A stretch of DNA of 62,560 bases, filler included, from Hausera hauseri (taxonomy: Eukaryota): the NCBI GenBank assembly GCA_046269625.1. It is 11 parts of 11 records of this genome, joined end to end, with 100 filler letters (N's around TTAATTAATTAA, not from the genome) between each part and the next. Parts side by side here need not be neighbours in the genome. Positions count along the whole stretch, not along the records: positions 13,054 to 17,814 come from JBJURY010446468.1; 10 more parts are not named here. The stretch is one strand, 5' to 3'. How positions within the stretch are numbered: position 1 is the stretch's first letter; every line of letters starts with the position of its first letter. Shown in pieces: positions 3,806-62,560 of the stretch. Under the pieces are notes generated by a model. That model worked only from the letters and a program-made list of their open reading frames with translations, ran no database searches and was not told the DNA's origin. The translations under genes were made by a program, and so were the position numbers.

Positions 3806-3859
3806 ATTAAAAACCACAAAAATATTTCAGCGAATCAAAATAATGTACTCTGCACAATA

Positions 3860-8100: not shown

Positions 8101-8613
8101 GAGTTCGGTAAGATTTTTTGCACTACCGGAACGCGGCATTCGTTTGTTAAATGATCGAGAAATTTTCATTAAATTCGGTTCGTTCATTTGGACGGTTTTT
8201 AAATCATCTTGCAATTTCTGACTATGATCAATACTGTGTGAACGATTAGTTCGAGAATTGAGAACAAACACCGTTGTGTCACTGTGTTTTCGATGGTATT
8301 CGTTCGTTCGATTAGCAACACCTGGACTTTTATGTCTGACACGATATTTAATCTTACCTGGTGGCGAAATGGCTCGAGACTTTTGAAATTGAGATAGTTT
8401 TCGTTCGCGAGTTTCTGACTGATTATTTGAATCAGTAGCAATCGCCGTTACTCTATTCGTTAACTCGGATTCATGAACAGTTTTATTCATTGAATCGTGT
8501 GTGTTTTCATTCGAACTGGCATTGGTGTTGTTCAATTCAATGCTGGAAGCAGTATCGCTTTTACCGAATCGTTTACGTTTATCAGTCAAATAGGTGAATG
8601 ACTTTCCGAGCAT
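5158..8613 (-). CDS. ANKFN1: Ankyrin-repeat and fibronectin type III domain protein (ANKFN1 / wide awake family) with C-terminal Ras-association domain, intronless
   Basis: 1151-aa uninterrupted ORF. ANK repeats (LFTAVNNND...LTPLDVAML), FN3 (VTRYKIEWS...DLSPQVDYYVRVSSMNLKG...PSCW), HGLYL and DGLYLGY blocks, RA-like GTLRIYAGYPCGLLEGTSVKISLTSQTT...VIKLIVQQLN. Confidence 0.88.
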   Translation of the reverse strand: MLGKSFTYLTDKRKRFGKSDTASSIELNNTNASSNENTHDSMNKTVHESELTNRVTAIATDSNNQSETRERKLSQFQKSRAISPPGKIKYRVRHKSPGVANRTNEYHRKHSDTTVFVLNSRTNRSHSIDHSQKLQDDLKTVQMNEPNLMKISRSFNKRMPRSGSAKNLTELRDDLSLVWNDGKLMQREIGMLFTAVNNNDLKTVESLLNSHPGIVNNHNNFDLTPLDVAMLYNYSTLAKRLIESGGRNSVCFENDPKLLQRHLTIVANNCTSQMLELCSHMYGGSIGSINRDVEVLDSLHRQINTLKSNFEQMKPGSPPRKVTLEVAGLNSLLVTVSPPSDSIVTRYKIEWSQHADFSEIDDEIIVRTKFPIGRYQICDLSPQVDYYVRVSSMNLKGAGAKVASVPSCSAPSCWTEVITQSSEFTGSRRCSHPQQWYVTRFDVEEMKMEQQLQFWLSSIRSHNKIIQGNNNEQNESNKLHIPGITGRKSLLKALFSSSSKFVRQPKHGLYLSLVFKAQDTEKVLSFGEDQLPFVLVDEEQPSLQAINVEIVWFMRLLANKPDLKLMVEVLGRIQVPASMQIRVKLIFAALQLQLTLGTTDLGLVYSGVIHETNYSVIVLSRLVSVAKHITLPAGLKWTLGSKITKSTGNINDSVSSQSGLEEELYGKMDSYLAFNKRITHTMEDGLYLGYARFKSTLDQLYIQQHLFNPNTIPIVKIRDNWHVDKDEWSHILSLKHSTETPNNSTDKRCLKFQSAIVKTWQKLQVNLKLKLPDIEHCRLYLEEVLWIKPRVRIILIVPALEDFCGVPGSEIILPLDYEWVPLHAFEFYHFYAHLSEDGSFSSWSTLSSCLDLLLPLAYQSLRQGFDQHEIDQSKERLEQFQDIQNKLEQYCKIMRWSVDVINNCRDKQISSFLTIPLQTVVNTDASSQTVLFTEIHCPESNPWGSSSTSLSDKHDIYNLNVPSDSVSPTSLRNISSSDSDASPLLKRPSRSPIRRSPIHKNRSDKSKSNSPVNDINKTDSHINDIHDKPIDVDDNHVATPPRKQIPKGTLRIYAGYPCGLLEGTSVKISLTSQTTTGNVIKLIVQQLNDTALQRNPCAPQYSNDDLNKFCLVVSIDKMSRPLPDNFHPLLLKQPWKSGKLTVKLKSEMSNV

Positions 8614-8945
8614 TGTGCCATAAAAAACAACAGATGATGTGCTGATGCATGTGCGATTTGCACACCGATAAAGTTCAATTAATGAATATCCGATAGAAAT
8701 CGGTTAGTCTGTCAGCAAATATCGAGTTGTGTGTTGGGAAGTTCAATTCGAGCTAAAAAACAGAAAACTTGAGATAACATTTTAGTGTAATGCAAAAGTT
8801 AAGATTAAAATCAAAATCAAAATCAACTTAATAAATAATATAGAANNNNNNNNNNNNNNNNNNNNNNNNNNNNNNNNNNNNNNNNNNNNTTAATTAATTA
8901 ANNNNNNNNNNNNNNNNNNNNNNNNNNNNNNNNNNNNNNNNNNNN

Positions 8946-11395
8946 GGAAACAGACACGTAACCACTACCAAGGATTGCCGAAATACTCGACAAGTTGCAC
9001 GGCTCAACCATATTCACTACAATTGATCTACAGAAAGATATTGGCAAGCAGAAGTAAAGGAGCAGGATGAGCCAAAAACGGCCTTCTCCATAGGAGAAGG
9101 GTTGTGGAAATTCAATAGAATGCCATTTGGATTAAAGAACGGGCCCTCGACTTTTCAAAGAGGAACAGAATTATTACTCCTAGATGCACCACATGTCATA
9201 GTATATATCGGTGATGTAATTATAGCATCTTCGGATTTCCAACAGAATTTGAAGGACATACAAGATCCCTTTGATAGATATGAAGAAATTGGTTTAAAAA
9301 TAAACTGGAAGAAATTTTCATTTGCTCAAACCGAAGTTAATTTTCTCTGACATCGAGTTGATAGGTACGGTGTAAACCTCAAGTTAGACTATTAAATAAA
9401 ATTAAACATTTCCCAACAGCCACTACTGTCAATGAATTATACAAATTTTTAGGATTAGCAAATTATTATCGAAGATTCATAAAGAATTTTAGTAAAGTAG
9501 CCAAACCAATATATGAACTATTACGTGAAGATTTAGAAAAGGTAATATGGACAAGTGAGTGTAAAAAGGCCTTCGAGGACCTGAAAGAAAGATTATTAAA
9601 TGTCCCCATCCTGATTTATCCAGATATGACTAAACCATCCATACTGGCAACGGACGCAAACAATTATGGATTAGGAGCGGTATTGTCACAAAAGGGAGAA
9701 GATGGCAAGGAATATCCAGTTGCTTATGCGTCGAGAAAATTAAATAAACACCAAAAGAAATGTTCCGTTATTGAAAAGGAATTACTAGCGGTAATATTCG
9801 CCTTAGAAGTATTCTCACCGTATATTAGTGAGAATAAACCATTGATAATCTACACAGACCATAGACCTCTACAATGGCTAAAGAAACATGAGAACTCCAA
9901 TAGTAGACTACTACAATGGGCTTTAAAACTCCAACCTTATACATTAGATTTTCAATACAAGCCCGGTACACAAAATGCAAACGTGGATTATTTATCAAGA
10001 ATGCAGCAGAAAGAAGTAGAAAAGAAAGAGCTGATTGCAGTGGTATGGAGTATGGATGAATCCGTAAAAAGGATAAAAGAGAATCAACGAGAAGAATAAG
10101 AAATAAAAGCCATTAGAAATTATCTATAAAACAAAATTATACCAAAGGATAAAGAATTGGCTCATCACTTAACCAGATTTAGCGATGCATACAAAGAGAA
10201 AGATGGATTTCTATACTACATTCATCAAAATGGACCTGCACTAGTATTGCCAAAGAAGAATAGAGCGGTACTGCTAACCCAATATCACGATGGATTACTA
10301 GGGGGACATCAATCAGTAAGAAAAACGATAAAAATGTTGAAAAGGAAATACTTCTGGTCTACTATAGCAAATGATGTCCAAGATTGGAGTGACAGTTGCA
10401 AACTTTGTGCCACACAAAAGAATACAGAATCCAAATTTAAAGCTCCCCTGAGAGTATGGGACAATCCACCTGCCCCATTTGAATTTACAGATATGGATAT
10501 AACAGAACCCTTACCATTGACAAGAAACGGGAACAAATATATCTTAGTGTTTGTAAATTATTTCACACGATGGGTCGTTGCACTGCCTATGCCAGATACG
10601 AAAGCTGAAACAATAGCCAAAAAAGTTGTAGAAAACATCATATTTAATTAAGGAGCTCCTCGAATTGCGTTAACAGACCAAGCATCCAACTTAACCGGCA
10701 GTTTCATGCAAGCAATATATCATATTATGAAGATATTAAAGTTGAGGTCAACCCCGGATCATCCAGAGAACAACGGAATGGTTGAAAGATATATAGGAGA
10801 TCTGAAAGAAAAGCTACAAACAGTAGTCAATGTAAGACAGGATGACTGGGATGAGTACATTAATGCGTGTGTCTTTGTGAATAGGACGTATGTGCATGAA
10901 GCTACCAAAGAGACACCCTTTTATATGATGTATTTAAGAGATGCCAGATTACAAATTGATTCGGACTTCAATGTATGGCCTATATCTCAGTTAACGGAAG
11001 TAGAGGAATATAAGCAATTAATGCAGGAACGTCTCCAATTAGCGTATACAATAATAAAGGATAACCAGAAGGAATATAAAATGAAATACAAAAAGTATTA
11101 CGATAAAAAGACAAAGCAACCGATAATCAAAGTAAAAGACAAAATGATGCTATACACGCCATTAAATAAGAAAGGCAAAACATCCAAGCTGGATAGACCT
11201 TATAAGGGACCGTACGAAGTAGAAAAAGTGGATTTACCTAACATATGGTTAAAGAAAAATAACACTAGAATTAAAGTACATGTCAACAGATGTAAACCGG
11301 CATCTAAGGCGAGCGAATTAAGAAACGACGAACAGGAAATAGTATGGGCCATCGACTATAAAAAGAGAAGTAATAAAACTCCGAATTATGAAGCA
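8946..11395 (+). pseudogene. gypsy pol: RT, RNase H, integrase with GPY/F domain
   Basis: MPFGLKNGPSTFQR, YIGD (mutated YxDD), TDANNYGLGAVLSQ, PVAYASRKL, EKELLA, YTDHRPL, HHCC zinc finger, GMVER, PYKGPYEV, VHVNRCKP. Several stops. Confidence 0.93.
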
Positions 11396-12807
11396 TTCAA
11401 ATACCTATGTCTATTGGTTCTCATAGGGATACCAGGCCTGTTAGCTCAAACGACAAAACCTCTTGATCCATGGATGAGAACCTTCCCTTCAAATGAAACG
11501 TTAGAAAGTAGCCTGATAAAAAGTATTTATCATGTGATAACCTACACAAGGAAAGGCCAAAAATGTATAAGATTTATGACATTCGAAAGACTACCCAACC
11601 AGTATATGATAGGAATTCAGGTGATCCACAAATATGATTATGAACGAAACCTGAAACAACGAAAATATGACTGTGGCCTTACCCATTGGAGGAACACGAC
11701 GGAATGTATAGTAGATTACTGTAGCAATTATCTCATATACTATACTCTGATCAAGAGACATAAAAATCGCCATCAATGGCAATAACCGAAGTGCCGAGGT
11801 ATCATACAGGTTCCTAGTAGACGAACAATGAATGCAACTGGATTAGATAAAATAATAGTAACTCAACTCACTATTAAACCGATTAGATTCAAAGGTGGAC
11901 GAAGTTGTGTCGAAATTACAACAATGATAGAGTTGGAAGAGGACAGAGTAATAAGTATAAGACTTACGGATGTAGAAAAGAAACAAAGAATGCCAACGAA
12001 TTGCCAGTTAACCGAGAAGCACCTCAGAGTCTGTTGAAATGCCCTAAGAGGAAGAACCTGTAATTTACAATTTATATTAATACAAAAGGATTCAGAGAGA
12101 GGTAAAACTCAAACTTACCAAGGGCATAGAATACATGTTCCACTCAAAAGTGTCACTGAATATGACGACGACCAGCAGCCACGTGTCACGACACCTCTTG
12201 CGAATCTTACACTATCTAATAAAATAAAGACAAATGTTGGAAATATGACAGTTCTTATTCGACCTCACGCCTCATGTTATCGCTATAAACGTTCTGTCTT
12301 AGAAAATGTCACTATATTTTCCACGCTCACTTCATTAGTTGTAGATATTCAACCCGATTTAAACTTATATAAAATAACGCTTACTTGTAAACTAGGTGAA
12401 ACGATTATAGCAAAAGGTATAATTACGCCAGACGATACAGTAATGCCGTGTGCCGATCTAAGTCCAAATACAAAATATGCGGTCACACTACAATTATATT
12501 GTGACTATAATACAATAACCTCTACTAAATTACTGATAGTTTCGATGAAAGCTAAAACACAACGAAAAGTAAAAAACCAAAAAAAAGTACAGGCTCAAAT
12601 AAAAATCCACCACCACCAAAAGCAAGCTATGCCTATTTCCGAACAGAAATAATCATAATAAGTACTGTATGTCCCACGACCTTCTTGATTGCGCTAGCGC
12701 TTTTAATAAAAACAATTGTTTGTATACGAAAACGTCGCAGACCAAACTGGGTTAGAATAGACATGCGACGCATACCAAATATTTTGGATACTGATAATCC
12801 AACTTGA
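11396..12807 (+). pseudogene. Env-like type-I membrane glycoprotein fused in frame to integrase (signal peptide, two Cys domains, FN3-like domain, TM)
   Basis: ORFs at 10706, 11828 and 12245 share one frame and are split only by single stops. Signal-like FKYLCLLVLIGIPGLLA|Q; sequons NET, NTT, NAT, NLT, NMT, NVT; RYKR at 12281-12292; CADLSPNTKYAVTL. After a shift in the A-run near 12580: IIIISTVCPTTFLIALALLIKTIVCI-RKRRR, stop at 12805-12807. Confidence 0.78.
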
Positions 12808-13053
12808 CGATGGCTTCAGCAGATTGTTGTCGACACAATCCGAGAAATTAAGATAATTGAATATTATTTATTTACCGTGAAAAATAATAAGTTTAAAATG
12901 ACAACGATTACCAAACCGAAATATATGATAACCCTTGTATTATATTTAAGATTNNNNNNNNNNNNNNNNNNNNNNNNNNNNNNNNNNNNNNNNNNNNTTA
13001 ATTAATTAANNNNNNNNNNNNNNNNNNNNNNNNNNNNNNNNNNNNNNNNNNNN

Positions 13054-16000
13054 AACTATGCCCTCCATTATCATCGGACCCTGTTAGCATAGGATCATTT
13101 GGGCAAATACCGAAGCCAAAATTTAAGTGGACCCCTACCGTTTATATGATGGGCCAAGCACTTCAACACGAATTTGCGATAATGGACCAGTTAACAGACT
13201 ATGTAGTACTCGGTTGCGACATATTGAAACAAATACCAGGCATGGAAATCGATGCGCATAATGGAAAATTACTTGGGCTTGCAACAATTAAGGGGACAAA
13301 AATAATAAAGGAAAAGAAATCGGGCGAAGTATGGATTCCGGTAGACGGAGACATTCCGCCCAGAACCGAAATGATAATTTTCCCACAGATTCATCAAGAC
13401 GAATATCTGCCAGTATATTTTGAACCTCAAGAGAATATCGATCCAAACCTCGTGTTTAGCAATATCCTATGTAGAGTAACGAAGGGACACATACCTATCA
13501 GATTAGTGAACAATGCACAAACCCTCGTAAGATTGCACGCTAACACTACTTTAGTCACACTTGCAGAGTATCGGCAGTAACAATAGAGGAAAAACCATAC
13601 AAGTGCGCTGAATTTCCATCTCACGTCGAAACCAAATTTTCTCCGGAGGCGTATTGCAAGTTCTACGAATTATTATGTAAATACCGTTCAATAATGGCAC
13701 AAAATGTGGAAGACATATGTAGAGCAAAAGCCCTGAGATTAACAATCCCATTAAGAAAGAAACGAGGCTCGAACGACGAAATCGATCTAGAGGAACAGAA
13801 AATGCTCAAATGGTACCCACCTCCCCATTCATTGAGGCTAGAAATAACTAAAGAGATAGAACGAATATTAAAGGCCGGTATAATTCGACCAAGCTACCGA
13901 TCATGGTACTCACCTATACTTATGGTTAAAAAGAAAGAAACCACGAAACATCGATTTTGTATAGATTACCGGGCATTAAACACGCTTATGATGAAAGACT
14001 CGTTCCCTCTACCGTCGGTAAAAGAAGCTTTAGACAGACTATCAGGAGCGAAATGGTTTACCACTATCGACTTACAATCGGGATTCTGACAAGTGGAAAT
14101 CGAAGAAGAAGATCGATATAAGATAGAGTTTAAAACACATGATGGCGTATACGAATTTAATGTTATGCCTTTCGGCATCACCACAGGACCAGCTATATTC
14201 ACTAGAATGATGAATAAGATGCTCATGGGACTCGATCATGCTTTCGCATATTTAGACCACGTAATGATAGCATCAAAAACAGAGGAAGAACACTTATAGG
14301 ACATTGAAGATACACTCTTGCGACTGGAACAAACAGGGTTGAAACTAAATCCAAAGAAATGTAAATGGGCACAGAACGAAGTATCGTACGTCGGACACAT
14401 AGTTGGAGAAGTAGGATCAAAACCGGATAAATTCCTGCTAAATAAAATATCCGATTGTATAGAACCGCAGAATCAAAAAGAGTTAAGACACTGGTTAGGC
14501 CTATGTGGGTATTATGCCACTTGCGTACCAGACAATTCGAAAATTAACGCGCCATTATATCGCCTACTCAAAGAATGAACAAAATGGAGATGGACGGAAG
14601 TGGAACAAAAAGCATTCGACGAAATGAAGAAAATCTTGACAAGCGAACCAGTTCTAAGACACTTTGATTTTAACGTACCATTCATCACTAAACAGGTCCA
14701 AGTAAAGAGGGTATAGGATATGAATTAGCTCAGAAGCGGGAAGATGAAGAACTAGAACACCCAACAGCCTATGGAGGACGCTCATTAAAGAAAGCAGAAA
14801 TGAATTATTCGGTTACAGAATTAGAAACATTAGCCGTAAAGAAAGCACTATGACACTTTATTGTCTATGTCTATGGACAAAAGATCATAATAGTGACCGA
14901 CCATAAAGCAGTTACGACATTGAAAGGACGAGCTAATAACCTAACACGTAGATTAAACCGTTGGATAGAGAAAATCTCACGATATAACATCGAATTCCAA
15001 TACAAACCAGGTAATAAACACGTCGACACCGAAGCACTATCGAGGTTAAAAACAAAAACAAGTGGGATTACCACGGTGAAAAAATTCAGCTCGAACAGAT
15101 AATCGAACGTCAAAGAACCCATACCCTGGATAAAACGATTAAGATCACCGCAGAGCAAGCGAAAGATAGGATTATTCAGCAAATTGTCGAGTTCATACAA
15201 AACGACAAAATACCCAAAGGACGACAACTAAAGAAGCATCTACAAAAACACGGACATAAATATCGCGCATCGAACCAAGATAATATCCTGTATTACTAAC
15301 GAAGCGGAAGGAATCTAACAGTTATTCCAAAAGGATTACGCGCCGAGGTACTCATGGCTGAACGTGATTCGTACTTAGCTGGACACATGTCTTGGAAGAA
15401 GACATTGGAGAGGATATTAAATAAATACTATTGGCCAAGCATTTATATCGATGTAAAGAATTTGGCAAGTGCTTGCGAAGTTTGCGCGATAAAGCAAAAG
15501 AAAACCAAAAGCTATGCAGCGAAATTAAAACACATAAACGTACCAGATAGGCCCATGCAAGCTATCTCTATAGATCTAGTGGGACCCTTGCCGAAAACTC
15601 ACAAAATAACACATATTTTAACATGCGTGGATCGATTAACGCACTTTGTCGAACTAGTGGCACTATTAGATAAAAAGGCAGGGACTTTACCCGACTCAGT
15701 GGTAAGGAAAATCATCTGTAGATACAGACCATCAGAAGAAATCTTAACGGATAGAGGACGGAACTACACGAGCGAATTATTCGAAAAAATTACTAAGATA
15801 TTTGAAACTGAACGTTTAACTACTACCGCATACCACCCCCAATGTAATGGAATGGTCGAGCGAATGAATTCAACAGTCATTCGTATACTGTCAACAGTAG
15901 TGGCCAAATACCAAAAGGATTGGGACGAATTTCTAGAAGGAACACAGTTCGCAATCAATATTACCCCACATCCAGCAACAGAATTTAAACCGTTCTTTAT

Positions 16001-16430
16001 AATGTATGGACGAGAGACAATTTTACCCGCAGATCTAGGTATGACACCGTACTAAAAAACCTTGAGGATTTAGAGCAAAACTTTGCCGAAGTCTTACAGA
16101 CAAGATTGCAAAAGTGTTGGGAAGTTGCAAAGACATTATGACTCGAATACCATGAACAATTTAAAAAACAATATGATAAAAAGACTAAGCCCCATGATCT
16201 GGAAAAAGGGAACTGGGTTAATATACATTACCCGGTTACGAAGAAAAGTACATGTTTGAAACTAACCCATACCGGAAGAAGACCATATGAAATCGTCCGC
16301 ACAACCCCAACCACGGTTTATGTTAATAAAAACGGTAAAGAGGGTCGTATCGATTCAAAGAGTAGTTAAAACAGATATAATACCAACAAAACACTACAAT
16401 CTAAGAAAGCGAGAAACAAAGACCTCGTCA
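13054..16430 (+). pseudogene. gypsy pol: protease, RT, RNase H, integrase
   Basis: VVLGCDIL; SWYSPILMVKKK, RFCIDYRALN, IDLQSGF, MPFGI, YLDH; TDHKA; GHMSWKKT...CEVC, IDLVGPLP, LTDRGRNY, TAYHPQCNGMVER; ends in HYNLRKR. Confidence 0.93.
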
Positions 16431-17806
16431 ATTGTCACCAGACTGGTATCTTACGTACAGATAATAGTAGCCTTATCGTTTATTGCTGTCCTAACGCCCA
16501 AGTCTAACGCCCAATATTGGGTCGATGAAACTTCGCTGAGCGATATATATGGAATCAGGAAAATCGGGCTAAAACCTTCACCGCCGAAGGAAGGAACTTC
16601 CAAACACAAAGACGAAAAATTTTTACGAGCAATAAAATTAGATTATTTTTCGCCAGAAGCCCCATGTGTTGGATTTAGGTTACCAGGACCACATGAGGGG
16701 CGAATCCAGACACTATTCCATGACCTATTAAGCCAAGCCGAATCTGAATGTAAATTCGAGACAGAAGATGATACAATTTGCTGCAACGTAGAATACGAAC
16801 ACTCAGTTATCGTTCATATTTGTCAGACTGTGATAATGTATACGCTGAAATAAATCTGAATTCACATTTAGTTGTGCCACGAACTTATGGAGATTACCTT
16901 AATATAGAGCTGGAAGATCTGCTCCAGTCCATCGACCCAATAAAACGGATGCTAGAAGAAAACAGCCAGTATAACGGGAAACCTAAAGGACGACTGTATC
17001 CAAATAATCACAGAAGGACGGTAAATTAAAGGATAAGTGATCATGGTTCAATTCGTAAAAGAGGACAAAGCAGCTTATAACCAACAATACTGTCAAATTG
17101 ACGCAGAAAGGACAAATAAGTGTTGTAAGTTACCTCAGGGATATAAATATAGAATTCGACTAGACTTATGAAGTTCGACCGAATCAGCCGAGTATTTACC
17201 TATGAAGTTATCAATTGTAAAATCCAGTTTGGGGAATTCCGCCCGAGATGACAACAAATAGAATTACGACTACAAGAATGAATACGACTACTTCACTGCC
17301 AACAGAATCCTCCAAACAAGTGGATTACCTCAGAAGGATCTAGAAATGATCCCTATAAAATATTGGACAAAACAACGTGAAATAACATTCGTTGTGGAGG
17401 AAGCACTTAATTACGACGTAGAAATAAGCTGCCAAACATTATATAACAACCAGAAAGTAACATTGAAAGTAACTATCGGATCAAATGCACCTACTTGAAA
17501 CCCAAAACAGATTACATAATACAAATAGGTGCAGAGAACAAACAAAGTAGAACATTTACGGTACAAACCTTAAACGAGATTGTATTAACAAAACCACTGA
17601 CTAATGAGGAGACGGAAGACGAAACTACGACTACCGCTAAAATAGAAAACTTAACTAAATGGACAACTTTGTCATTAATATCGATTATTGGAACGTCAAC
17701 GTTCGCTCTCATAACCTTTGTTCCGTTTTTCCATTTCATTACCAAAAACTGTTGTAATAAGCGTCATAAAATCACCGAGAGGGAATTAAGGGTGATGGGA
17801 CCGTAG
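16431..17806 (+). pseudogene. Env-like type-I membrane protein downstream of integrase, homologous to 11396-12807
   Basis: Signal-like IVTRLVSYVQIIVALSFIAVLTPKSNA|Q right after YNLRKR. Cys domains PCVGF...ECKF...ICCNV and DCIQI...YCQID...KCCKL. FN3-like CTYLKPKTDYIIQIGAEN, Thr/Glu stalk, TM WTTLSLISIIGTSTFALITFVPFFHFI, tail KNCCNKR. Frameshifted. Confidence 0.78.
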
Positions 17807-17989
17807 AACGAAATNNNNNNNNNNNNNNNNNNNNNNNNNNNNNNNNNNNNNNNNNNNNTTAATTAATTAANNNNNNNNNNNNNNNNNNNNNNNNNNNNNN
17901 NNNNNNNNNNNNNNCGCTTGAAAACAGTGGATCAGGTTCTGGCTCAGGTTTAAACATACAGTAACAAGAAAATCATTTGAAGAGAATTA

Positions 17990-18610
17990 CAAAATATTAA
18001 ATTTATGTAATAAATGTACAGTTTTTATGGCTTTTGGGTTATTAGAAGATCTAATAAGATGATTGAACATATTCAATTAGTTAATGAATATAGAAAGTAA
18101 TGGTTTGTTTTTGCAGAACTTGCTTTTATGTATAAAGAATTTAGCAAGAAGTACAATAAGGTTGATGACAAAAAAAGAGTCACAGTTCTTCTGGTCGAAA
18201 GCCGTAAATCCAAGAATAACAGTGTGAAAACTGAGAGGAGTTTGTGGGGAAATAGTACGAATAAGGTTCATGATATCATCCCAGAGTGTTTTGGTGTAGT
18301 CGCAGCTCCAAAACAAATGATTCATGTCTTCAGTGTGAGTGGTACAGAAAGAACACAACGTGTCAATATTTTTCTTAAATTTATACATATTCTGTTTGGT
18401 AGGGTAGCATCTATGGACAAGTTTAAAAGCCACTTCTTTAACTTTGTTAGTGACAAAGAATTCATGAGGCAGAGACCAAACCTTCTTCCAGTTAAGACCA
18501 TGAATGGACCTATTCCAATTAACAGCAGCACAAGGTTGGGAGACGATCAGCTGTTGGAAAAGGGAACAAATTTCCTTGTTTTTGGAATTAGACACCAGAG
18601 AAGTTTTACC
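17990..18610 (-). mobile_element. LINE (L1/Tx1-type) ORF2 3' fragment, zf-RVT domain
   Basis: WKKVWSL...KVKEVAFKLVHRCYPT...CSFC...EDMNHLFWSC...LW...LAKFFIHKSK. Boundaries are approximate. Confidence 0.85.
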
Positions 18611-18679
18611 AACAGAAGTATCCATTAAATTGCATGAGGTTGGGTCTGGTTTCTGACTGATGATGCCCTTCATAATCCA

Positions 18680-19216
18680 ACACATTCTCACTCCCGACTC
18701 GTCACATATTGACGCTTGGTCAGGTTCCCTCAGCGTCACATATTGACGCATCGGGTACCCCCTTCGCGTCAATAATTGACGACAAGGGTTCTCTCGTTGA
18801 ATGTTGTATCACCGCTTCGGATTTTTTTTTAGCTTTTATTCAAAACCTTTATTTACAATTTATCTGCTAATTGAACACGATATTTACTACAGCTACATGT
18901 CGGACGTATCAGTCATAAGACTTTAATTCGGTATTTAAAAATAACTCAGTAAAGCATAAAACCGGAGGGTTTTTGTTGTTCTTAGCTTGATTTAAAAGCC
19001 TTTTTTTAAAAGTTACCTAATATTTTTGAGTATATCAATGATTTACTCCAAATAAATGTAAGAAAAATTAAGATGTATTTTCTTTTGTGATTGCATGCCA
19101 AACTCTTCTGTAAACGTTTTAATATTTTTGATTAAAATAATAAAAATAAGGACATCCAAGAAGAAGAAGAAGAAGCTGACGTCATTATATGCGACGCTCT
19201 GGTGAGTATAAACCTG
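18680..19216. mobile_element. Putative non-autonomous DNA transposon with palindromic subterminal repeats
   Basis: CGTCA-N5-TGACG at 18700, 18734 and 18767. Related inverted motif plus imperfect TIR at ~19178-19216. Confidence 0.45.
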
Positions 19217-22200
19217 CATCTGTCAAAATGTTTTTGTTCTCTAAAACCACAAAATAACTCCAAAGTGTTGCGTTATAAAGTTACTGATGGTAGTTTTAGG
19301 ACTTAATGGCAGCAGGACTGAGCTGCGAATGGTTGAAGACACGTTTGTAACATTTTTTTGCCGGAAAATATGCGGTGGAAGAAGCTAGCTAAATTAGCCT
19401 CTTGGAGGCTAATTGCACCTGTACACCTGTGCTTAATACGTTTAATTAGCCGTGATAGAGTCACATTATAGTGTTTATAGTCATGCCTGTTGCCACTTTG
19501 TAAAGTTGGAGGGTTGGTTGCTAAAAACATCAGTGCCCCTAGGCTGAGATCATCTTTAAAGCCTTTTTTATGAACCCTGTCTGAATACACTGATAGCAGC
19601 TAGGTCATTTACTGGAATTAAAATGAACTTGCATCAGTACAGGCAATGTTCTTTCCTCCTGTCTATGTTATTTATTGCTGTTGAAGAGAAATAAAGAGCT
19701 GAGAACTTGATCTGTGGACAGACAGAAACCATAGGGGAGGAGCAGCCTGGAGAATCCAATGACGACACCAGAGAACCAGGAAGAGACTGTGATTGTGCTG
19801 GATCTGGTTCCTGTTTCTCCTCCTGTTGTCCCTTCCTCTCAGTCTTTTCAGAAGAAGAAAAGACCCTGAAGACCTCCAGCTGCCTCTCCTCCCACTGTGT
19901 CATCTGTCTGCCCCCATAGATCAGCACATCTGCAATCATGTCACCGGCTGGCCATCTCATCTCCTTAAGTCAGGGTGGCCGATAAGAAGAGAGAGTAAGT
20001 TTTGTTGTCCCTACATTCATCAGTCCAACATGTCAACCTCTTTAGCACGATTCATACTTGTGGAGATACCAGTTAGAATTAGTGATTGTCCATCAGAGTG
20101 TTTAAGAATCAAACCAGGAAACGCGGTCACTGTGGTCATGCTCAACGGTATGGATAGCATTTTTTGAATGACTCAAAACCAAAATATAAAAAAGTATAAT
20201 ATCAAAATTTAAATAACTCTACTTTGGCCGTGTGAGTACTTTAACGTACATATCATAGAAGGGCTGTCTGGTGTGGTTATGTTCTTCAACATTTTGGTGA
20301 GGTATCTCCTCATTCATTCAGCATTCAGATCATACGTAGACCTGGCAACATCAAAATTAATTGAGTGAGATGTTTTGTGCCAGAGACACACCTAAAACTT
20401 GAAAGACACCTATCCTTGAGGTATTTGGACACCTATGCCCTATTTTATGTTTTCATTTTTTTATCTGTCATTTTAAATCAGACAGGTAAGATCTCGGCTG
20501 ACAGCTTCCTGAAAGGTTTTTTGAGTTGGGAGTTATGCCTGAACTCCAACACCTGCTTAAAATGAAGCCATTTATCTTGATTGTCCATGGCAAAGTCCAT
20601 GAATGTGAGGTAAGAAACACTGACCAATTGCATAACCTTGCTGAAACATAACTGTATAAACATCTTTGACACAGTTGATATTGTTTGTGCATGTTTGTGC
20701 AGACACAGATGGACACAAAGCTTCTGCCAAGGCTCATCGCAAGATCAGAAAGGAGAAAACATCTTAGCATTGGCTTTAGAAGATATTAGTCACTTGAAGA
20801 CTGATACAGACACAGACGTTCTGTCTTTGGAAGAGATCCTGTCCGGTGACCCAACATTGCCATGGCAGAAATCACACAGTGGTAAATAAACATACACTCA
20901 TCTGTTTTATACTGTCATCATACCTGACAGATACTGCAGGTGTTGACCTAAACATACAAATTCTAACTTTTACTGTGTTGATTTGTTCTTTTTATAAATG
21001 CATTTCAGACTGTCGGTCTTCACACAAAAACAAGGGCAATCGATGACATGATAGTAAAGAGACTGGATGAGGAAAAGAGGATCCTTGTTGATGGACCATC
21101 ATTGGAAATCTCTGTCATCCTATGAAGACACGCTAAAGGAGTTTCCCGCCTGTTATCAGGAGGTAAATTTAAAAGCATGTTTTTAAGAATTGCATAAACA
21201 TATCAAAAGTTAAAGCATCTAAATTTTTCATTTTTATTAATGTTCAACTTTAAAGGATGGTCCTGTGCCCTAACTGACGAAGGTCCAAGAGGTCTCCAGA
21301 GCATCATCCTCAGAGAGCTGCAGCATCAACAGATGAAGCAAATTACAGAGTATTATCTACAGACTTGGACAGGAGCAGAGAGTGTTAGCTTTGATGACGA
21401 CTTCAGTAGTAACTGATAATACTCTTTAATCATTTGTGAATGTACTGCTGACAAAGATCTACACTGGTGTGACAGTGTTCGCCTCTTTCTGACCAATATG
21501 TCACGAGTAAAAAAAAAATTATATATATAATATATCGTTTGCTCGTAAGTCACAAAGAGACACCTTACAATTTGTTCTTGTGCTTTCATGTTTACAAATG
21601 GCCAGTGTTTTATCTTGTTGATTCTTTCTTTTTTTATAGTTAATTACTAGAGCTGTAATTACTTGCACAGGCATGTCCCTGTGACTATGTAGTAACTAAC
21701 ATAACCAAGACATCTTTTTGGATGTTCTACTTTTATTTTATTTATTTATTAATATGTGCAGTTCTGTTTTATTTCTTAATCCAAAGAATTAAGTGTGTAG
21801 TGGTGGAACAATTTCTTATCTTTGGTCAGTTTTCTGTCAATATTGTTATTAAAAAGAAATGAGTAAAATAAAATTTCAGTACTTGTCAAAGTGATCTTTT
21901 AATGCTGTGTTCAGGTATGATTTTGTTTCATGACATGCATTTATACAAAAATCATAAAGGCATGATTTTATTAACAAACAGCATCTAATTTAGTGGATAC
22001 TTCAGGACATGTTCTGTACCCATCAGTTGATAAGTCAGTAATGAAGCCTTTTAAAATTTTGGACAAACAAGAAGTGGTTTGAAGAAATTATCAGGAGAAA
22101 TAAGCTGTTCAGCTTTTCGGTACTCTTTAATGACATCTGAAAATAAGTTATAATTGCATACATAGACGTAGTGTTATTCAAGCATGTCTATGTTCAACAG

Positions 22201-23171
22201 TTGACAGGTGAAAAAGGAAGCCGACTAAGGTTTAGTAGAAAAACTTGCTGTTGGTGTCATTTAGTTGAAATGCTTCAGATTTGGACATAACTTCTTTTTT
22301 AAAACAGGTTTCTGATTTAGTGAAATAATCTTAATGAAATAAAGAACATTAACTTGGTATTTGGATACATTTACAAACCAAAAAGGGTCAGACCTCTAGT
22401 TCACCTACAATAATTAGATCAACACAACTTAACTTACATTCTCTTTAGGCCTTTCTCTGCAGGCTTATGAAATGATTAAATGAGCCACAGAAACCTGAGA
22501 CACCATCAGGCAAATCATTCTTTTCCCACCAGAGCAGATTTAGAGTCGGGCTACAGAGCTCAATTCTAGAGAAAATGCATCTTTAAACCAGTACTTTCAT
22601 ATAGCATTTGACCCCAATCTAACCCTAGATTGTTTTTATACAGTTTAACACAGTGTTTTAATCCTAGAGAAACACTATGTTAATCAAACATAATTTAGAT
22701 TACTATGCTAACGTAGTTTAAATTACAGTAGACTCAGACTGATTCAATATTAATTTACTAAACTGTAATGTTGAAGGACTTCAATCTGGGTTTCTTTCAC
22801 TGGGCATACGCAAAATAAGATGCAAACTTTAACTTAAATAATTAACCTTAGACAGGATAACATGCTATGCAAAATACTTCTCCTTAAAGTTTTTTATGTG
22901 TAAATACTGATCACACTGAATAAAACACAACATATTGCGCTTACACTTCTACAAGTGTGTAGGAAACGAATCTGTTGCACAGTTTAACCTTGCTTCATGC
23001 CTTAAAGACAACACACAGGGCAAACTTGACCAACCTACAATGACGGCCAACTTGTCAGGCAAAAAGTCTATNNNNNNNNNNNNNNNNNNNNNNNNNNNNN
23101 NNNNNNNNNNNNNNNTTAATTAATTAANNNNNNNNNNNNNNNNNNNNNNNNNNNNNNNNNNNNNNNNNNNN

Positions 23172-24050
23172 CGATCTCACCTCTTACAGAGCTTCTAAAT
23201 TCTTGGGCGATGCTGGAATACCTTAGCTTTCAGGTAGCCTTACAGGAAATCAAGCGTGATTTCATGTTGGGTGCAACTGCACCTGTGCAGTTTGAGTTCC
23301 TGTGGCAGTTGGTCTCACACCTCCAACAACGCTGTTTTCAAGCCCTAGATGATTTTTGGAAAGTGTATGGCAAGTTGCAATTGTCCTCCCAAGAATGTTC
23401 GAGGCATGCTCTATAGGGTTCAGGTCTTGAGATCTCATTGCCCAATCCATCCGAGAAATATCCTCACTTTCTTGAAATTCGAGGACCAGATGAGCCTAAT
23501 GTGAACATGCATTATCATCCATTAAAATGAAATCAGGGCCAACTGCACCCCTGAAAAAGCATTAATAGGACTCCAAGATCTCATCCCTATGCGTCACAGC
23601 AATCACAAAGCCTCTGACAAAGACTGGGATTTTGTGTGCTCATTCAGCATGATGTTGCCCACATTGACAAACCTCCTCTACCATAGTGGTTTCTTTCTGG
23701 GATATTGGAGGACAGGTAGTGGGTCCCTTTTTCTATCTAGATGAATGCATGTTGAGAATCAGTGGTTAGGCTGAACCAGGACTCATCAGTGAATAGAATG
23801 GTTCAACACTGACCTGTGGTCCAATGTCAATGCCCTGTTCACCATGCTAAATGGACTCTCCTGTGCCTAGAAATGAGTGGGACACAAACAGCAGGTCTTG
23901 CAAACAGTCCTCATTCATGTAGCCTTCTGTAAACAGTAAGCCTTGTAACTCTGCTTCCTGTGGTCGTATAAAGGACACAAAAGATCTGAGAAGCTGTTGA
24001 ACTCCTGTTACACCTCGCTGTAATGGACAAATATCAATCTTCATCAGCTG
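23172..24050 (-). mobile_element. Tc1-family transposase relic
   Basis: ILFTDES, GAVGPDFILMDDNA and MDWAMRSQDLNPIEH...ILGR (Tc1 WPxxSPDLNPIE motif). Many stops. Confidence 0.85.
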
Positions 24051-24462
24051 TTGTAACTCTTGAACATTGTTACCCAAGCTTTCTCTCTATGGTGACAGTC
24101 ACCTTAAACTGTTTCCATAAGTTTGTCATTACTTTGGGAGTTAAATTAAAGTTTCTAGGAATCTGCACTCAAGTCAACCCTGCATCCAGTGCCTCCCATG
24201 ATTTACTACCTCATTCCATCATCCAAATGCACATGTACACTTATGTATTCGATTCGAAAGAGTTGTATCTTTTTTTTGGAAGCATTAGTTTTACTTTTAG
24301 TACAGTAATTTTTGAAGATTTTCTTAATTTTGTACACCAGTGTATTTCTGAACCAAAAATGTATATAACTAGCTTTCTTTACCAGGTATTGCACTGGTGA
24401 AAGAGAAAAGCATTATCATATAATGCTATAATCCCATATGAATATCTCCTGAAAAATTACTA

Positions 24463-25466
24463 CAGTTGAGCCCGCTTATAACGAAATCTGATATAATATA
24501 ATGAAATATCGGTTATAGCGGGATGTTTCTGATCCCCTTGAATCTGTCATACTAGAACCATGCTAAATTAACCTTCTATAACAAACCTCTAAAAATGTAA
24601 GCATCGGCTATAGAGAATTTTATTTGTCTTTTGAAATTTTCCAAAATTGTGACATAGCACATTTTCCTAACAAATCGTAAAAAAAAAAGGAGTATGTGTA
24701 AAGTTATTTCTAGTTTTGACAATGATGCAATCACCTCTGGCTTTAAAATTTCTAGAAACAGGGAAACCTTCTAAAAAATGAGTTGATTTGCTTCTTCTTA
24801 ACCTTTGGCTTTTTCAAGGGGTGGTTAAAGTCATCCCTTGAAGACTTGTTTCTTATTGTTTACGACACGCTAAATTGCTTCTGGACCACTCCTCCATAAG
24901 AATGATCCACATTTCTGAATTCTCCAGAATTTCTGGAATCTTCCCTTTTGAGCTTTGCGATTCTTTAGTGATCCTTTCTGCCTTCTGCTTGGCTATGAAT
25001 AAAGAGAAAATGTTTAACTTCAGAGACAAAAGTTGAGATAATTTAACTGGTTGAAGAAAATGCTACAAAAAAGAGCGACAAAACGTTTCCAAATTCATCC
25101 AAGTTCATCAACAATTCTGAAAAATAATACTAATTAGTTTTAGCAAAATAGAAAAAATATTATGCTGTTCAGAAAAAAGTTAGCTTTTTTTCATTAAAAT
25201 ATTAAAAAATTGCATATTGACAAATACTATTGTCACTTTTTACTTTATTTACTTAGTAATTTCATAGAAAAAGCAGGTAAATGCTTTTTCAGTTTCTTTT
25301 CATAATCCGAGAGCATTACATAGTGATAAGTATTGCCAAAATTTTTCTGGTAGTTTGCAGTTATATATGATTAGATTTAATTTTGGTTTGATCGGATATA
25401 GCGAATTTCGGATATAACGAAATATTCTCTTAGTCCCTTTCATTTCGTTATAAGCGAGCTCGACTG
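24463..25466. mobile_element. pogo/Tigger-like MITE (Tc1/mariner superfamily)
   Basis: TIRs CAGTTGAGCCCGCTTATAACGAAAT / ATTTCGTTATAAGCGAGCTCGACTG, flanked by TA on both sides. Subterminal GATATAACGAA-type repeats. Confidence 0.9.
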
Positions 25467-27329
25467 TACAAGATTTCTCTATCAGAAAGCAGTCGACTTC
25501 TATCGGTGACTACAGTGTTGTGTAGTCACTTCATAGTGTCTCTTTTGGCTTTAATTTAACCTCTTAAACCATTTAAACACGCCCAAGCTTCATTTAATCG
25601 CATTTCTTTCTATATCTTCATGTTTTCCCAAAATGGTGGCCTAAGATGCTATCATGTCTTGAGGTTTTGCAAAGCGAAATTCGGATGTTTTTAAATGCTT
25701 TAAGGGAATTTTCCTATTCTAAATTGGGGTGTTTGGTATGTTTTTAAAGCTGAGTTTTTGCTGAATTTAATGGTGGAACTCATTTGTGTGCAGCACCATT
25801 CATTAATTATGGGGATTTGTTTTAATTTCGACCTTTTTCTTGGGGGCTTGTCCACCTATCTCGTAAATTCGAGTCCCGAACAGGGAATGTAAATTTATGG
25901 GATGGGTGAACGAGTTGGGGCTAGTCGTTGTGCACATTTCTCATGCCTTTGGTTTTATATAGTTTTCTCCTTAACGGTCTTTTTGCGGGAGTGTTGTTTG
26001 TGGGTTTTTTTGACGTGTTGGCTATCTTTTAGGAGATGGCCTACGGCAATCTTGAGAACAAAATTTCAATGCACAGGCTGAAGAAGGGAAGATGGTGGAT
26101 GTTTTTGAATTGTTAACCATCATGCTGTCACTGAGAATGAATATTGTATAAATAATTGCCTTTTCTCGGCCCGAAATGTAATCCTTCGCAGATGCAGAGA
26201 AAAAGGAATTTTCCCTCTTAGGCCAAGCTGAGGCCTCAAGTGTAATTTATGCTATCTGGAATAAAGAGCTTGGTGTGGAAGTAACATCTATTTATTTGTG
26301 TTCGAGTGATTTTATGATGATCGGCGAATTTAGGAAGCCGGATTGCCATTCAAGGATGCTGTAGATGTTGATGGTGAACTAATCATACATTCCTGTCACG
26401 GTTATTGTGGCCACAACACAGCGATACAAGATACGTTCACAGACGATCATAGTGAATTTAGGAGTAAATTAAAATAGATGATTGGAAAATATTTATTTAT
26501 TGAGGTGCAGTTTTGAGAAATAATAATGAAGAGAATAGTGTAAGCAAAAGGTTCATAACATCACAACATTACCATCAAAATATTGCAATGAAACCTGAGC
26601 TCGTAGAATCCCAAAGCATTTCTTGCATATAAAGGCAAGTTGTTTAATAAGCCAGAGAACCAATATGACATTGTAAATAAAAAAAACTTTGAGAATGGTA
26701 AAGAGCTGCCGCTCTGTTTTCTCTGCTTGGTAGAAAAAATATATGGAATGCTGAAATTTAGATTTCAATCTTACCAGTTTTATGAAATAAAATTTAATTA
26801 AAAATTAACTGGTGGTTTCTAAATTTTGAATTAGCCTAAGTGTTCCCTTGTGACATAAGTGATAATTGACCAAAATTTGGTTAAGATAGGTCAAATGGTG
26901 TAGATTTGTGTGCTGTACATACACAGGTTTTGTTTTATATAGTAGTTTGATTTTAAATTTCAGATCATGAGAATTTTAATGTTGCTATCTTCTCAACTTG
27001 ATTATTGATGGAAAATTCATTGGCATCATTATAGTCGAATTTCAGCTATTTAACTGTATAGTTTTAAAGAGTTAAGAGATTCATTTCGGTTTGAAACAAT
27101 ATAAAAATAAGCAGTTTGCTGTCTCCTTTCAACATTCTGCCATAAGAATGTTTTTATTTTCTTAGTTTTTAACATTAGTTTGTTAAAACAAAGTAATGAC
27201 AGGTTTTATAATGTTCAGTATTTGTAGTTTGTCAGGACTCTGAGTGTGGTGAAACAGTAACAAAACTTCTGAATTATACCTGGAAAAGTCAGGGAAAACC
27301 AAAAATCTCTACTGCTGACCACCCTGATT

Positions 27330-59189: not shown

Positions 59190-60712
59190 ACCCCTATACT
59201 TCTCCCGTTGAGGTTCGACCGGATTCCCCAACTAGTCATTCTGGTTCCAACACCTTTATTCGCGGTGTCCTCAAATTTATCTTTTGATAATCCTTTGATT
59301 AGATTCGTCCCTGTTAGCTTACTAGGGGCTGCGGCCGTTCCTCTGTTCGGTAAACTTATCCAGTCGGTTCCACTGCGTCTAAACATTGGCTCGCCCAGAC
59401 TCGTCTTGCATTCCTTCAATATTGTTGGCTCAGTCGAGTTTGCCAGTAATACTCTGGTGAGTGGCATCGCTAGTCTTGGCATGTTTTCGTAGATGACAGG
59501 TAATTCTTGCATGCATCTTTTCTCTTCTACGTTGATCGACACGTCTCTTTTTTCGCATTCGTAGGTTAATAGAACTTCTTCGGTAACTCATCCAAAGACA
59601 CCCTCTTTCATCGGTATAATCGATTATGCCAATTCTGGGTTGGAGTGAATTAAAGCCAGTTTGGTTCTTATGACTTCAGTATCTAATCTGTAGTCATTTG
59701 TTATCATGTTGTAATATAGTTCCGCTATTCCGGTTTGCCCTTTGTAATAGAAATAGTCGTCTCGATTTTTGAGGTAATCTTCGATCCGCACATCTTGTGT
59801 TTTTAAATCGTACGTTTTCATATCAATTTCTGTTTCCGCTACAAAAAATGCTTCGTAGTTGGTGGCATCAATAACTACATCGCAGTGTGATAACATATCC
59901 TTTCTAATAAATTTTAACACGTGCACATCTGATATTAGTATTGTCAATGTGGATTGTTCTATGACATCTTCCCTTGATCTGGTATTAGCATGTAATTTTC
60001 CCGAATAACGCTGTACAGTGGTCTCATTAAATTTTAATTCTTTGATTTTGATGAAATTGCAATCCTTTTTAGAGGGCGGATTCTATACGATGACCGAACT
60101 TCGGAATGTGCAGGCACTATCATTAAAGTGGCATTTCTGATTTTCGGTGAATAGTTTGGTAACGCTGTGAAACATCGCTTTTATGGATCTTAACTCGGTT
60201 TCATAAAAATCTACAACTAATATTCCTCCTTCTATTCCTTTCCCTGTGTCATATTCTCCTCCGACACAATAACCGGTGTGCATGTTCAATTTTCCCACTG
60301 CCACTTTGTAGGCTGTAATTATTTTTCCTTCTTGGGCTTCCAATTCCATGCAGTCCCAAACCATTTTACCGGTTGACCGGGCTTCTAAGCAATGTTGTCT
60401 CTCCACGTTCATTGGTATCAATGGTGTGGTAGGTTTTATTATTGACGAATGGTCGTACATATTACCACAAAGAAATATGCTGCGGGATCTATGTATCATA
60501 CATTCTGCTGCATCCATTGAGATTAGCTCCCATTGTTGATATAGTATGTATTTCTTCTCTATTGTCTGAAGCTTGAGGGGCCTCGCATCCTCACATGTTT
60601 CTAAGTCCATCAAGAAATATTTCTGGCCCACCTTGAATTTGTCACAGTCGTATATGGTGACTGCTCCCATCTGCTTCACTAACATCATTATTGTTAGTAG
60701 ATTGATTAACCA
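59099..60712 (-). pseudogene. Chuvirus-like (class III) fusion glycoprotein, env-like
   Basis: Three ORFs in one frame with three stops. Signal WLINLLTIMMLVKQMGA|VTIYDC; ETC, LYQ, EC.I.RSR...CGNMYDHSS, C....TG, GYCVGGEY; EVLLTYEC...CMQELPV...PLTRVL...EC...PMF...W. Confidence 0.8.
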
Positions 60713-60759
60713 ATTCGACTGGTTCTCTTTACTCCAAGAGATGTTTCGTACTATGTCCT

Positions 60760-62560
60760 CTAAGTTATTGGTACTTTTCGCATTGTCTTCTTTTCAAATA
60801 GTTTAGCCCATTTTATTTCTTTAGGTATCCTTCTCGCCGCTTTTCTAGCTAACTCGATTGTCTTGTCGAACTCATTTTCTCGGAGAGGATTAGTTTTTAC
60901 AGCTAAATAAATCAAAAATTTCCTTAATTCTTCCATCATATTATGCGTCATGATTTTATCAATTACTGTTTCATCAGGAAGAGTACTTTTAGATAGTTTG
61001 AATTGCGACGTTTTCATTGTCCGTGCTATATTATATATCAGTCTTTCTTTTTCGGATAATATGTCACCTTGTAGTCCGGTATAATTAAGTATTCCTATTA
61101 AATCTTTCATTAGCTCAACTAATTCTTCATTATCTTAGCTTGGAGTTGGTACTGATAATTGTCTTAGTTCTCTAATCAGATCTGCATTATAATCCACTTC
61201 TTTTATTTTCCTTAATCTTCCGACCGGTCGTTTCGGTTTCGTTGGTTGTAAGGTTTCACTTATGGGTACTAGATTTTTATTGTATTGCGGTTTGTCGTCC
61301 TCAGTTTGTAAATATTCGAAGTACATTGCGGCGTCTTGAATCCTCATAATTCTTCCAACGTAATGTTCTGTATGTGTCTTCCTTATGGCTTCGTCTTTGG
61401 TTTGCTCACTAGCAATTATTGATATTATTCAATTCTCTTCGTGGGGTATAATCCCTACGTCTATTAAGGATTCTAGCTCGCCTAGTATCCTCCCTCTGAA
61501 ATATAGTCGATAACTAACTCTTTCCCTGTCATTCTTATTCATTATCCGCTGCTTTATATCCGTAACCGTAGTACAGGTAGTACACTCAAATTCCTCGTCA
61601 TCCATCCACTCGGACGATACCTTTACTCTAAGTTCCGCTTCTGGTTTACTTCTTAGCAATTTAGCGTATTTTTTTATTAGAAGTTTGGGTACAGCGCTGT
61701 AGGCGATGTTTTCACTGGATAACTTAGTCAAAGTCGGAATCAATTTCCTTAACCTTTCTTCACTTATGTTTACTTTCAATGCACAGCTCAATTACTTTTC
61801 AGCTAGCGCAGGATCGAATAGCATTTGCATGTCGAATTTCGTTTTCTGTGCACCAGTAAGTGACTCATAAATTTGTATTGGAGTTCTTTGACTTTGCCTG
61901 GTTAGACCTTGGAGATATTCATCCCATTCGGCTTCATTATCTGCGTCAGGTAACTCGTAGTTCATTAGTGCCGCATGTCTGACCTGTACTCTTTTGCGTA
62001 ATTCTCTTATCTGCGGTTACAATGTTTTCATTATGGGTATCCTAAATCCGTCTCCATTTTTGCATGATTGTTGTATTAGTGTTATTACTCGGCACATTTC
62101 CTCTGGTTGCGTAAAGGCTTTCTCTTGATAGCTGGTTATTTCTGCGTTTCTGTCTCTTTGCCATCTCTGTACGAATTCCATTTTGTCGTTCATTTCCGAT
62201 TCCTTAAGGGAATACTTGTTTTTGTAAACTTCTTTTTCTCTCAGTAATTCGTTTAGCTCGCGTTACCTTTTCTCGGAGCGTAACCGGGTTTCTTTTACCA
62301 GACGTATTCGATTTGTTAGTCTTTCGGCTATTATCCAGTCAATTTCTGCCATTTCTATTAATAATAATATTAATTTGTGAATTTGATTCAATACTTCCGC
62401 GTTCGGATCTATTGCATTCATTACCTTGCCGATAAACTTGGCTTCGTCGGCCGTCAACTAAAGATCCTTCCTAATTTCCGTTAGTTCGGCGTGGCAATGT
62501 AAGTCGAAGCCTAGCGTCCTTTCTGCTGGATTCTTTAAGTATTGTAATGTTTGTGCCAGG
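60760..62560 (-). pseudogene. Degraded polyprotein of unknown function containing a ubiquitin-like domain (~61432-61625)
   Basis: ORFs ending at 62457, 61791, 61347 and 61110 share a frame. LRVKV...TTVTDIKQRI...YRLYFRGRILGELESLIDVGI is ubiquitin-like. Confidence 0.55.

Follow-up and report, generated by a model that had tools for sequence, protein, structure and literature searches.

What kind of protein follows the integrase in two decayed retrotransposon copies of the Hausera hauseri genome, and does it belong to their lineage? The copies lie in a window (the whole stretch of 62,560 nucleotides analysed) made of eleven contigs with N spacers between them. A Pfam domain search identified G1 (8946-12953) and G2 (13054-17814) as decayed Ty3/gypsy pol regions. 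Both contigs are internal pieces of elements and begin inside pol. G2 had been described as a separate contig with a divergent pol, and it is indeed flanked by N spacers on both sides (12954-13053 and 17815-17914), while its pol shares 33-41% identity with that of G1 over the main blocks. The domains RVT_1, RT_RNaseH, Integrase_H2C2 and rve come in gypsy order across G1, G2 and their relatives (Table 1), and no Pfam family matched G2 at 13056..13580. The integrase tail (HYNLRKR) had been read in both elements; it stands for G2, where YNLRKR occurs, but G1 lacks any YNLRxR. Among the relatives, a [YF]xLRxR motif follows the integrase in P0003-P0006 and P0043. G1 and G2 are multi-copy in one public run, possibly the window's own source: 12376 of its contigs match G2 and another 3324 match the 3' part of G1 (at least 85%). 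Coverage extends to all 30 bins, and the junction between the G1 integrase and signal is spanned by divergent contigs.

Table 1. Features of G1, G2 and the fusogen-bearing contig in the window. KD19, Kyte-Doolittle 19-mer; TM, transmembrane segment; PR, protease; RT, reverse transcriptase; IN, integrase.
Feature	Position	Strand	Evidence
G1 RT (part), RNase H, integrase	8953..11389	+	RT_RNaseH E 1.6e-38; IN 41-46% identical to P0003-P0008
G1 cargo, integrase frame, two in-frame stops	11390..12550	+	translation
G1 signal (part of G1 cargo)	11390-11446	+
G1 FN3-like domain 3	about 12300-12520	+	profile E 2e-4; 0/500 shuffles
G1 Lys/Pro-rich stalk, TM (from 12649), basic tail; different frame from ectodomain	12556..12807	+	translation, hydropathy
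G2 protease end and PR-RT spacer (dUTPase-like by position)	13056..13580	+	tblastn to P0006 2199-2333, E 3e-8
G2 RT and RNase H, with stops and frame change	13667..15050	+	RVT_1 E 4e-35; tblastn to relatives
G2 integrase, broken	15126..16330	+	Integrase_H2C2 E 1.6e-15; rve E 1.7e-9
G2 YNLRKR motif, integrase end	16395..16412	+	sole YNLRxR in window
G2 signal-like hydrophobic stretch, same frame as YNLRKR	16443..16512	+	KD19 2.07
G2 cargo domain 1, Cys-bearing	16560..16835	+	alignment to G1 domain 1 p 0.04; relatives' profile, 162/500 shuffles as high
G2 cargo domain 2, two in-frame stops	16965..17165	+	alignment to G1 domain 2 p 0.0095; profile, 33/500 shuffles
G2 cargo domain 3, FN3-like, two frames, split near 17470	17340..17563	+	relatives' profile
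G2 Thr/Glu-rich stalk, TM (17675-17731), juxtamembrane CC, tail	17564..17806	+	translation, hydropathy
Decayed ubiquitin-like domain, then gB-type env (separate contig)	59243..61791	-	ubiquitin E 4e-4; PF24664 E 4e-12

In each copy, a signal stretch, Cys-bearing domains, a stalk and a TM lie 3' of the integrase; we refer to this module as the cargo. The cargo peptides quoted in the initial annotation are all present in the translations of G1 and G2, and we recovered both the signal-like stretch that it placed after the G2 integrase (KD19 2.07 at 16443) and the G2 TM with a juxtamembrane CC (KD19 1.95 at 17675, with KNCC behind). The G2 cargo does not form one frame: its translation changes several times between two frames and meets in-frame stops. 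A furin site had been noted in G1 only, and the R-x-K/R-R site (RYKR, about 12281) has no counterpart in G2. Since none of the seven intact relatives carries such a site either, it is not a lineage trait, and we rejected furin cleavage as a family trait. The short basic tail said to end both modules is doubtful: the G2 stop lies 8 bases short of the contig end, the G1 frame stays open beyond the tail stop up to the contig end, and intact relatives have longer tails. Given these contig ends and longer tails, the short tails are probably not the true end.

The two modules had been said to align by eye. Compared directly, they are not similar beyond chance overall: the best tblastn match has an E of 37, and the frameshift-aware cargo score of 41 compares with a mean of 40.7 for shuffles. 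Of 150 shuffles, 68 scored as high, as did 33 of the 110 other segments taken from the window. Domain by domain, p is 0.04, 0.0095, 0.36 and 0.07, with domain boundaries set afterwards. This lack of overall significance favours separate captures of unrelated host surface genes, with G1 and G2 sharing only a generic FN3, or else a tolerated passenger; we hold this explanation, on which later results also bear, to be very doubtful. Against separate captures stands domain 3 of both copies, which fits a Cys-spaced family profile far better than the window's host FN3 does. The profile comprises 24 units from intact relatives only, G1 and G2 being excluded. Among 2496 window segments, G1 domain 3 ranks first (E 2e-4, 18.9 bits). 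Next come both halves of G2 domain 3 in their profile order (positions 15-48, then 52-71), with 11.0 and 9.1 bits. For all three matches, 0 of 500 shuffles scored as high. A frameshift-tolerant scan places the window's top peak at G2 domain 3 (38 bits, above 30/30 shuffled profiles); in this cruder scan, G1 domain 3 reaches 27.8 bits and does not exceed the shuffled profiles. Domains 1 and 2 of G1 and G2 were equalled by 33 to 162 of 500 shuffles against the relatives' profile. Thus, the shared domain series proposed initially is supported for domain 3, via the intact relatives; domains 1 and 2 lack a significant match. Similarly, the FN3-like label applies by profile to domain 3 of G1 and G2, and for domains 1-2 an FN3 fold is a possibility. 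In Pfam, G2 domain 3 matches fn3 (E 0.038) and Pur_ac_phosph_N (E 3e-4). By profile, then, domain 3 of G1 and of G2 is homologous to the cargo unit of intact relatives. Run against long proteins in a word-based search, the G1 cargo retrieved 0 of 1460 candidates.

The phylogeny of pol places both copies in one lineage. In a tree of RT, RNase H (RH) and IN, the nine cargo-bearing rows, including G1 and G2, form one clade (support 98/94); this more careful tree has 24 of 41 rows, a chosen subset. G1 is nested in the cargo clade and G2 is basal on a long branch, which counts for separate captures. An RT phylogeny had been proposed to see if G1 and G2 make one clade. They share one with the relatives, but a sister pair of the two has no support: it is absent from the tree, yet not rejected (AU p 0.18). 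One protein, P0023, falls inside the clade in a quick IN-only tree and outside in the three-domain trees; we took the former as long-branch pull and dropped P0023 as a clade member.

Intact versions of the module come from relatives of G1. Searching long proteins with the G1 integrase gave 22 matches, of which the best six (41-46% identity) are P0003-P0008; the G2 integrase gave 10 matches at 27-35% identity and no close long relative. The closest long relatives of the G1 integrase are giant single ORFs with the order gag-gB-PR-RT-RH-IN-signal-ectodomain-TM. P0004 (4029 aa) and P0006 (3700 aa) encode gag, a linker, a signal, a gB-type env (PF24664, E 1e-83 or better), a TM, protease, RT, RNase H and integrase. 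These are followed by another signal, a Cys-bearing domain that is repeated, a stalk, a TM and a tail. The cargo module is immediately 3' of the integrase in P0007 and P0008, and is separated from it by protease-like and ankyrin domains in P0005. P0003 and P0043 also have a gB-type env; their slot is occupied by a small Cys-rich ectodomain (P0003) and by an Ig domain (E 9e-5) followed by a hydrophobic end (P0043). P0009, from the P0043 cluster, ends 112 residues past the IN core, without cargo. By eye, residues about 1900-2226 of P0043 (signal, Ig domain(s) and a C-terminal hydrophobic stretch without cytoplasmic tail) resemble a GPI-anchored protein.

A signal and a membrane-anchored ectodomain follow the integrase in all seven distinct complete polyproteins of the clade (FN3 type in five), against one of 46 integrase ORFs outside it when in-frame cargo is counted (P0010, with a gB env after integrase); one further outside ORF of the 46 has a single in-frame hydrophobic stretch. 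With G1 and G2 inside the clade, the proposal that the cargo is a lineage feature is borne out, and the suggested search for intact copies has yielded these seven complete polyproteins. The three ectodomain types in the slot speak for separate captures; frames open over 3700-4029 residues speak against them and against a passenger. A metagenome scan returned 80 loci. Just two of them, L001 and L002, fall within the clade, and these represent elements already counted (P0005 and P0003), so they are not independent. IMG/VR scans gave no confirmed clade member (none in 3 of 3).

Is the cargo the Env? A gB-type fusogen precedes the protease in four of the seven clade polyproteins: PF24664 lies between gag and pol in P0003, P0004 and P0006, and P0043 is an env-pol protein that starts in env. 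Both gB and FN3 cargo occur in a single frame in two polyproteins, P0004 and P0006. We rejected the cargo as Env or fusogen: the modelled cargo matches FN3, the cargo has no fusogen Pfam match, and no fusogen is among the PDB or BFVD rows listed. Since the fusogen of the lineage is separate and ahead of the protease, the cargo is, on this layout, not the Env and is best described as another surface protein, one that diverges fast and occupies a slot whose content can be swapped. This cautions against labelling any ORF with a signal and a TM after integrase as env, the fusogen being upstream here.

The window itself holds a gB-type env on another contig (59243-61791). Its ubiquitin-like domain matches the pre-env linker of P0004 (residues 622-734, E 1e-9), and its env is 25-28% identical to those of P0003, P0004, P0006 and P0043, with no match to P0010. 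By these matches, the segment is the front half of a P0004-like gag-env-pol layout, on a contig that has no physical link to G1 or G2. The gB region is absent from the G1 and G2 contigs, which start inside pol.

The presence of two surface proteins raises the question of whether they act as one machine. Herpes gB requires gD, gH and gL, and the entry of gB-type errantiviruses is, in the available text of Chary and Hayashi (PMC13524379), unexplained, which counts for an obligate gB partner: a gD/gH-gL-like trigger on the particle, whose FN3 would bind a receptor and activate gB by direct contact. The production of both proteins from one frame in P0004 and P0006 would also suit such a trigger, which we nevertheless judge improbable, as P0010 has its gB-type env after IN and no second membrane protein, and the ectodomain is replaced within the clade while gB is kept. 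PF24664, which we take to be a Monjiviricetes-type fusogen, argues in the same direction: class III fusogens such as rhabdovirus G can act alone at low pH.

Structure prediction indicates what the intact cargo may look like. From a five-row alignment, AlphaFold2 (AF2) produced a model of the P0008 cargo with a pLDDT of 78, in which the chain forms two sandwiches of seven strands each. Foldseek matched this model to the tandem FN3 of fibronectin, LAR, Dscam, Tie2 and NCAM (E about 1e-6), and VIA gave a Z of 9.2 and an rmsd of 3.2 over 89 residues against NCAM FN3. CD45 and cytokine receptors are also among the fold matches, and those in BFVD are FN3-type phage and giant-virus proteins. The cargo of the relatives is thus predicted to be a tandem FN3 of two to three domains. 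Atlas look-alikes of P0058 are FN3 membrane proteins, including cytokine receptors; all score below 0.9 and are therefore leads only. The G1 model, from a partly misaligned six-row alignment, is unreliable except at the end of domain 3 (pLDDT 36.6; below 50 over residues 18-324); it gave no Foldseek match at E 0.001, and the best (fibronectin, E 1.4e-3) was not counted.

The predicted tandem seven-strand fold and the type I topology with a stalk recall the FN3 ectodomains of animal adhesion proteins and receptors, from which the cargo differs by its low identity (7-17%), its own Cys spacing and the lack of a Pfam fn3 match, which we found for no intact cargo. A search of 1.84 billion proteins with the cargo profile gave 16 matches: two inputs, six further family members, six Pfam-fn3-repeat proteins and two other repeat proteins. 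The absence of a close host source among these 16 is a further point against separate captures. In the PDB, the profile found no sequence match below E 0.3. No animal FN3 match stands above the others, so no donor could be identified.

The initial annotation described the module as constrained in structure with a fast-evolving surface, and the relatives agree. Elements that share 79-88% identity in RT-RH have ectodomains with 24-46% identity, and no Cys varies between variants of one family, the P0004 cluster, in which changes are mostly conservative. The full-length frame is kept in 15/15 members listed, of 20, and the mean difference is 1.9% for FN3, 0.17% for gB and about 0.25% for pol; as these members represent about two haplotypes, the counts are not independent. 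The divergence of the ectodomain may reflect positive selection or relaxed constraint, both compatible with the protein-level data. That the cargo is a host-interacting protein, as first suggested, we retain as an inference.

Fast divergence also suggests that the cargo could be a receptor mimic or decoy on the producing cell. Such a protein would have a host ligand or defence receptor as its target, or else prevent superinfection, with no role in entry. The ectodomain diverges much faster than gB, gag and pol (1.9% versus 0-0.3% between haplotypes), and the cytokine receptors and CD45 among the fold matches point the same way. Swappable FN3, Ig and Cys-rich ectodomains recall viral immune-modulator cassettes. 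For this decoy reading we also count that Burro1 is reported, in the accessible part of the source, with host-modulating cargo (PMC13465017). If true, it would place a surface immune-modulator cassette in an invertebrate retroelement. We consider it rather unlikely: the tails have no signalling domain (no Pfam match) and most of the changes that distinguish the haplotypes are conservative.

The end of the polyprotein offers another indication of function. An S/T-x-V end is found in 5/5 intact FN3 polyproteins and in 5/5 C-terminally complete fragments, tails that are otherwise very divergent; as these proteins fall into about five related groups, they do not count as independent cases. None of the 46 outside ORFs ends in S/T-x-V, and three of the 46 end in S/T-x-I/L. 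S/T-x-V is the class I PDZ-binding pattern, which HTLV-1 Env uses with DLG1 at the virological synapse and cell contacts, according to the portion of the source available (PMC4810129). The FN3 polyproteins thus likely end in a putative class I PDZ-binding motif, and its retention where the remaining tail has diverged argues against separate captures. A PDZ anchor would suit placement at junctions better than a decoy, though decoys can carry one. P0003 ends in E-V-V and P0043 has no such end; with the tailless Ig protein of P0043 and the Cys-rich one of P0003, both FN3 and the tail motif are dispensable for the clade as a whole. The motif is not visible in G1 or G2 (decay, contig ends).

Together, these observations make adhesion or attachment at cell contacts, by a PDZ-anchored type I surface protein accessory to a separate gB, a reading to which we give an even chance. 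The internal signal would enter the ER and signal peptidase would free the cargo from the integrase; alternatively, a spliced subgenomic mRNA could give the same product. The cargo tail would bind a junctional or polarity PDZ scaffold, which would place the protein at cell contacts, and the Cys-bridged ectodomain would bind a partner on the neighbouring cell or matrix. At such contacts, gB-bearing particles would bud and fuse. G1 and G2 would themselves once have had a gB and a PDZ-type end, which we can only infer because their contigs show neither region. FN3 is a generic fold, and the cytokine receptors among its look-alikes weaken the adhesion reading. More tentatively, in a scenario that is possible although less than probable, entry would use two glycoproteins: a conserved gB and a captured, PDZ-anchored adhesion protein in an exchangeable slot (FN3, Ig or Cys-rich) that would set tropism and build synapse-like contacts. 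An endogenous LTR element would then assign attachment to one protein and fusion to the other, the division of labour seen in herpes- and paramyxoviruses.

How do these elements compare with known systems? HTLV-1 Env is also a retroelement membrane protein with an S/T-x-hydrophobic end and cell-contact spread, as far as the available text describes it (PMC4810129, PMC3395148); there the motif is on the fusogen, whereas here it is a predicted motif on a separate FN3 protein that ends the polyprotein. The planarian Burro/GYPSM1 is a giant gypsy element with an in-frame gag-env-pol polyprotein (PMC6431247, in the part available). The clade shares with it a single huge polyprotein and a mononegavirus-like env in frame between gag and PR (intact relatives of 2871, 4029 and 3700 aa), as well as a ubiquitin-like domain before env, a PR-RT spacer and ankyrin repeats (here in P0005 and P0053). 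Unlike the clade, Burro is given no FN3 or membrane protein after integrase in the accessible part of that account, where "fibronectin" does not occur (PMC6431247). The BIR, MATH and BCL2-like domains of Burro had no Pfam match at E 0.5 in P0003-P0010, three of which are N-terminally incomplete. The likeness is one of layout.

GAG-ENV-POL errantiviruses of HSV/gB type are described from Platyhelminthes, Bryozoa and Nematoda in the available portion of Chary and Hayashi (PMC13524379). They have a Ty3/gypsy pol with a gB-type env before it, and their size (12-18 kb in the rows listed) is similar to that of the relatives' contigs (13-20 kb); in contrast with the clade, their main text has no second membrane protein and neither "fibronectin" nor "accessory" (PMC13524379). 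The ORF3s of bdelloid rotifer LTR elements are likewise non-fusogen-like membrane proteins after pol, in elements with DEDDy exonuclease ORFs downstream (here, RNase_T in L001, E 1.5e-11); in the accessible text they differ in being separate ORFs of 210-230 aa, with FN3 unmentioned and no gB before pol (PMC5408684). In the literature searched we found no description of a post-integrase FN3 module, although prior annotation in key Burro papers is possible. This is therefore a gypsy clade that resembles Burro, bears gB and has an additional surface protein that can be exchanged; the layout is known and the second protein is apparently undescribed. The entry of gB-bearing retrotransposons without gD, gH or gL is called unknown in the available part of the most recent survey (PMC13524379), for which the clade provides a candidate gB partner; some of its natural members are intact, and their four-residue motif predicts junctional localisation.

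Some clade members carry further modules. Residues 45-245 of P0007, and P0053, have an extra module of one FN3 and a TM before the protease; in P0053 ankyrin repeats precede it, and P0053 and P0008 both list a 20084-base contig. After the integrase, P0003, P0004 and P0005 have extra aspartic-protease-like domains, up to three per polyprotein (P0004), one of which in P0004 sits between the integrase and the cargo signal. L001 and L002, which are 3' parts of elements only, showed no pair of direct repeats of LTR size. Accessory ORFs lie 3' of the polyprotein in L001 (7268-10374) and L002 (5011-6528). The one at L001 9043-10374 encodes an RNase_T-family exonuclease (E 1.5e-11) and two others look similar by eye, with no Pfam match; tandem repeats of 89 and 62 bases lie between the L001 accessory ORFs.

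The rest of the window is heterogeneous. An uninterrupted ORF of 1181 residues with ankyrin, FN3 and RA domains and no apparent intron (5158-8703, minus strand) is presumably ANKFN1/wide awake-like. Fragments at 1-4489 and 44232-56781 resemble polinton-like/adintovirus-type elements, with DNA_pol_B_2 and Endonuclease_7 matches at 44607-45215 and other ORFs that are capsid-, ATPase- and protease-like by eye. The two contigs at 17915-28404 have CpG counts much below the rest and are possibly DNA of another organism; a C-terminus resembling that of non-LTR retrotransposons lies at 18077-18808. Finally, 28534-32622 and 35472-39635 (both minus strand) hold a piece that by eye resembles BEL/Pao, together with decayed pol pieces of gypsy type that are unrelated to the G1/G2 clade and only 25-40% identical to it.
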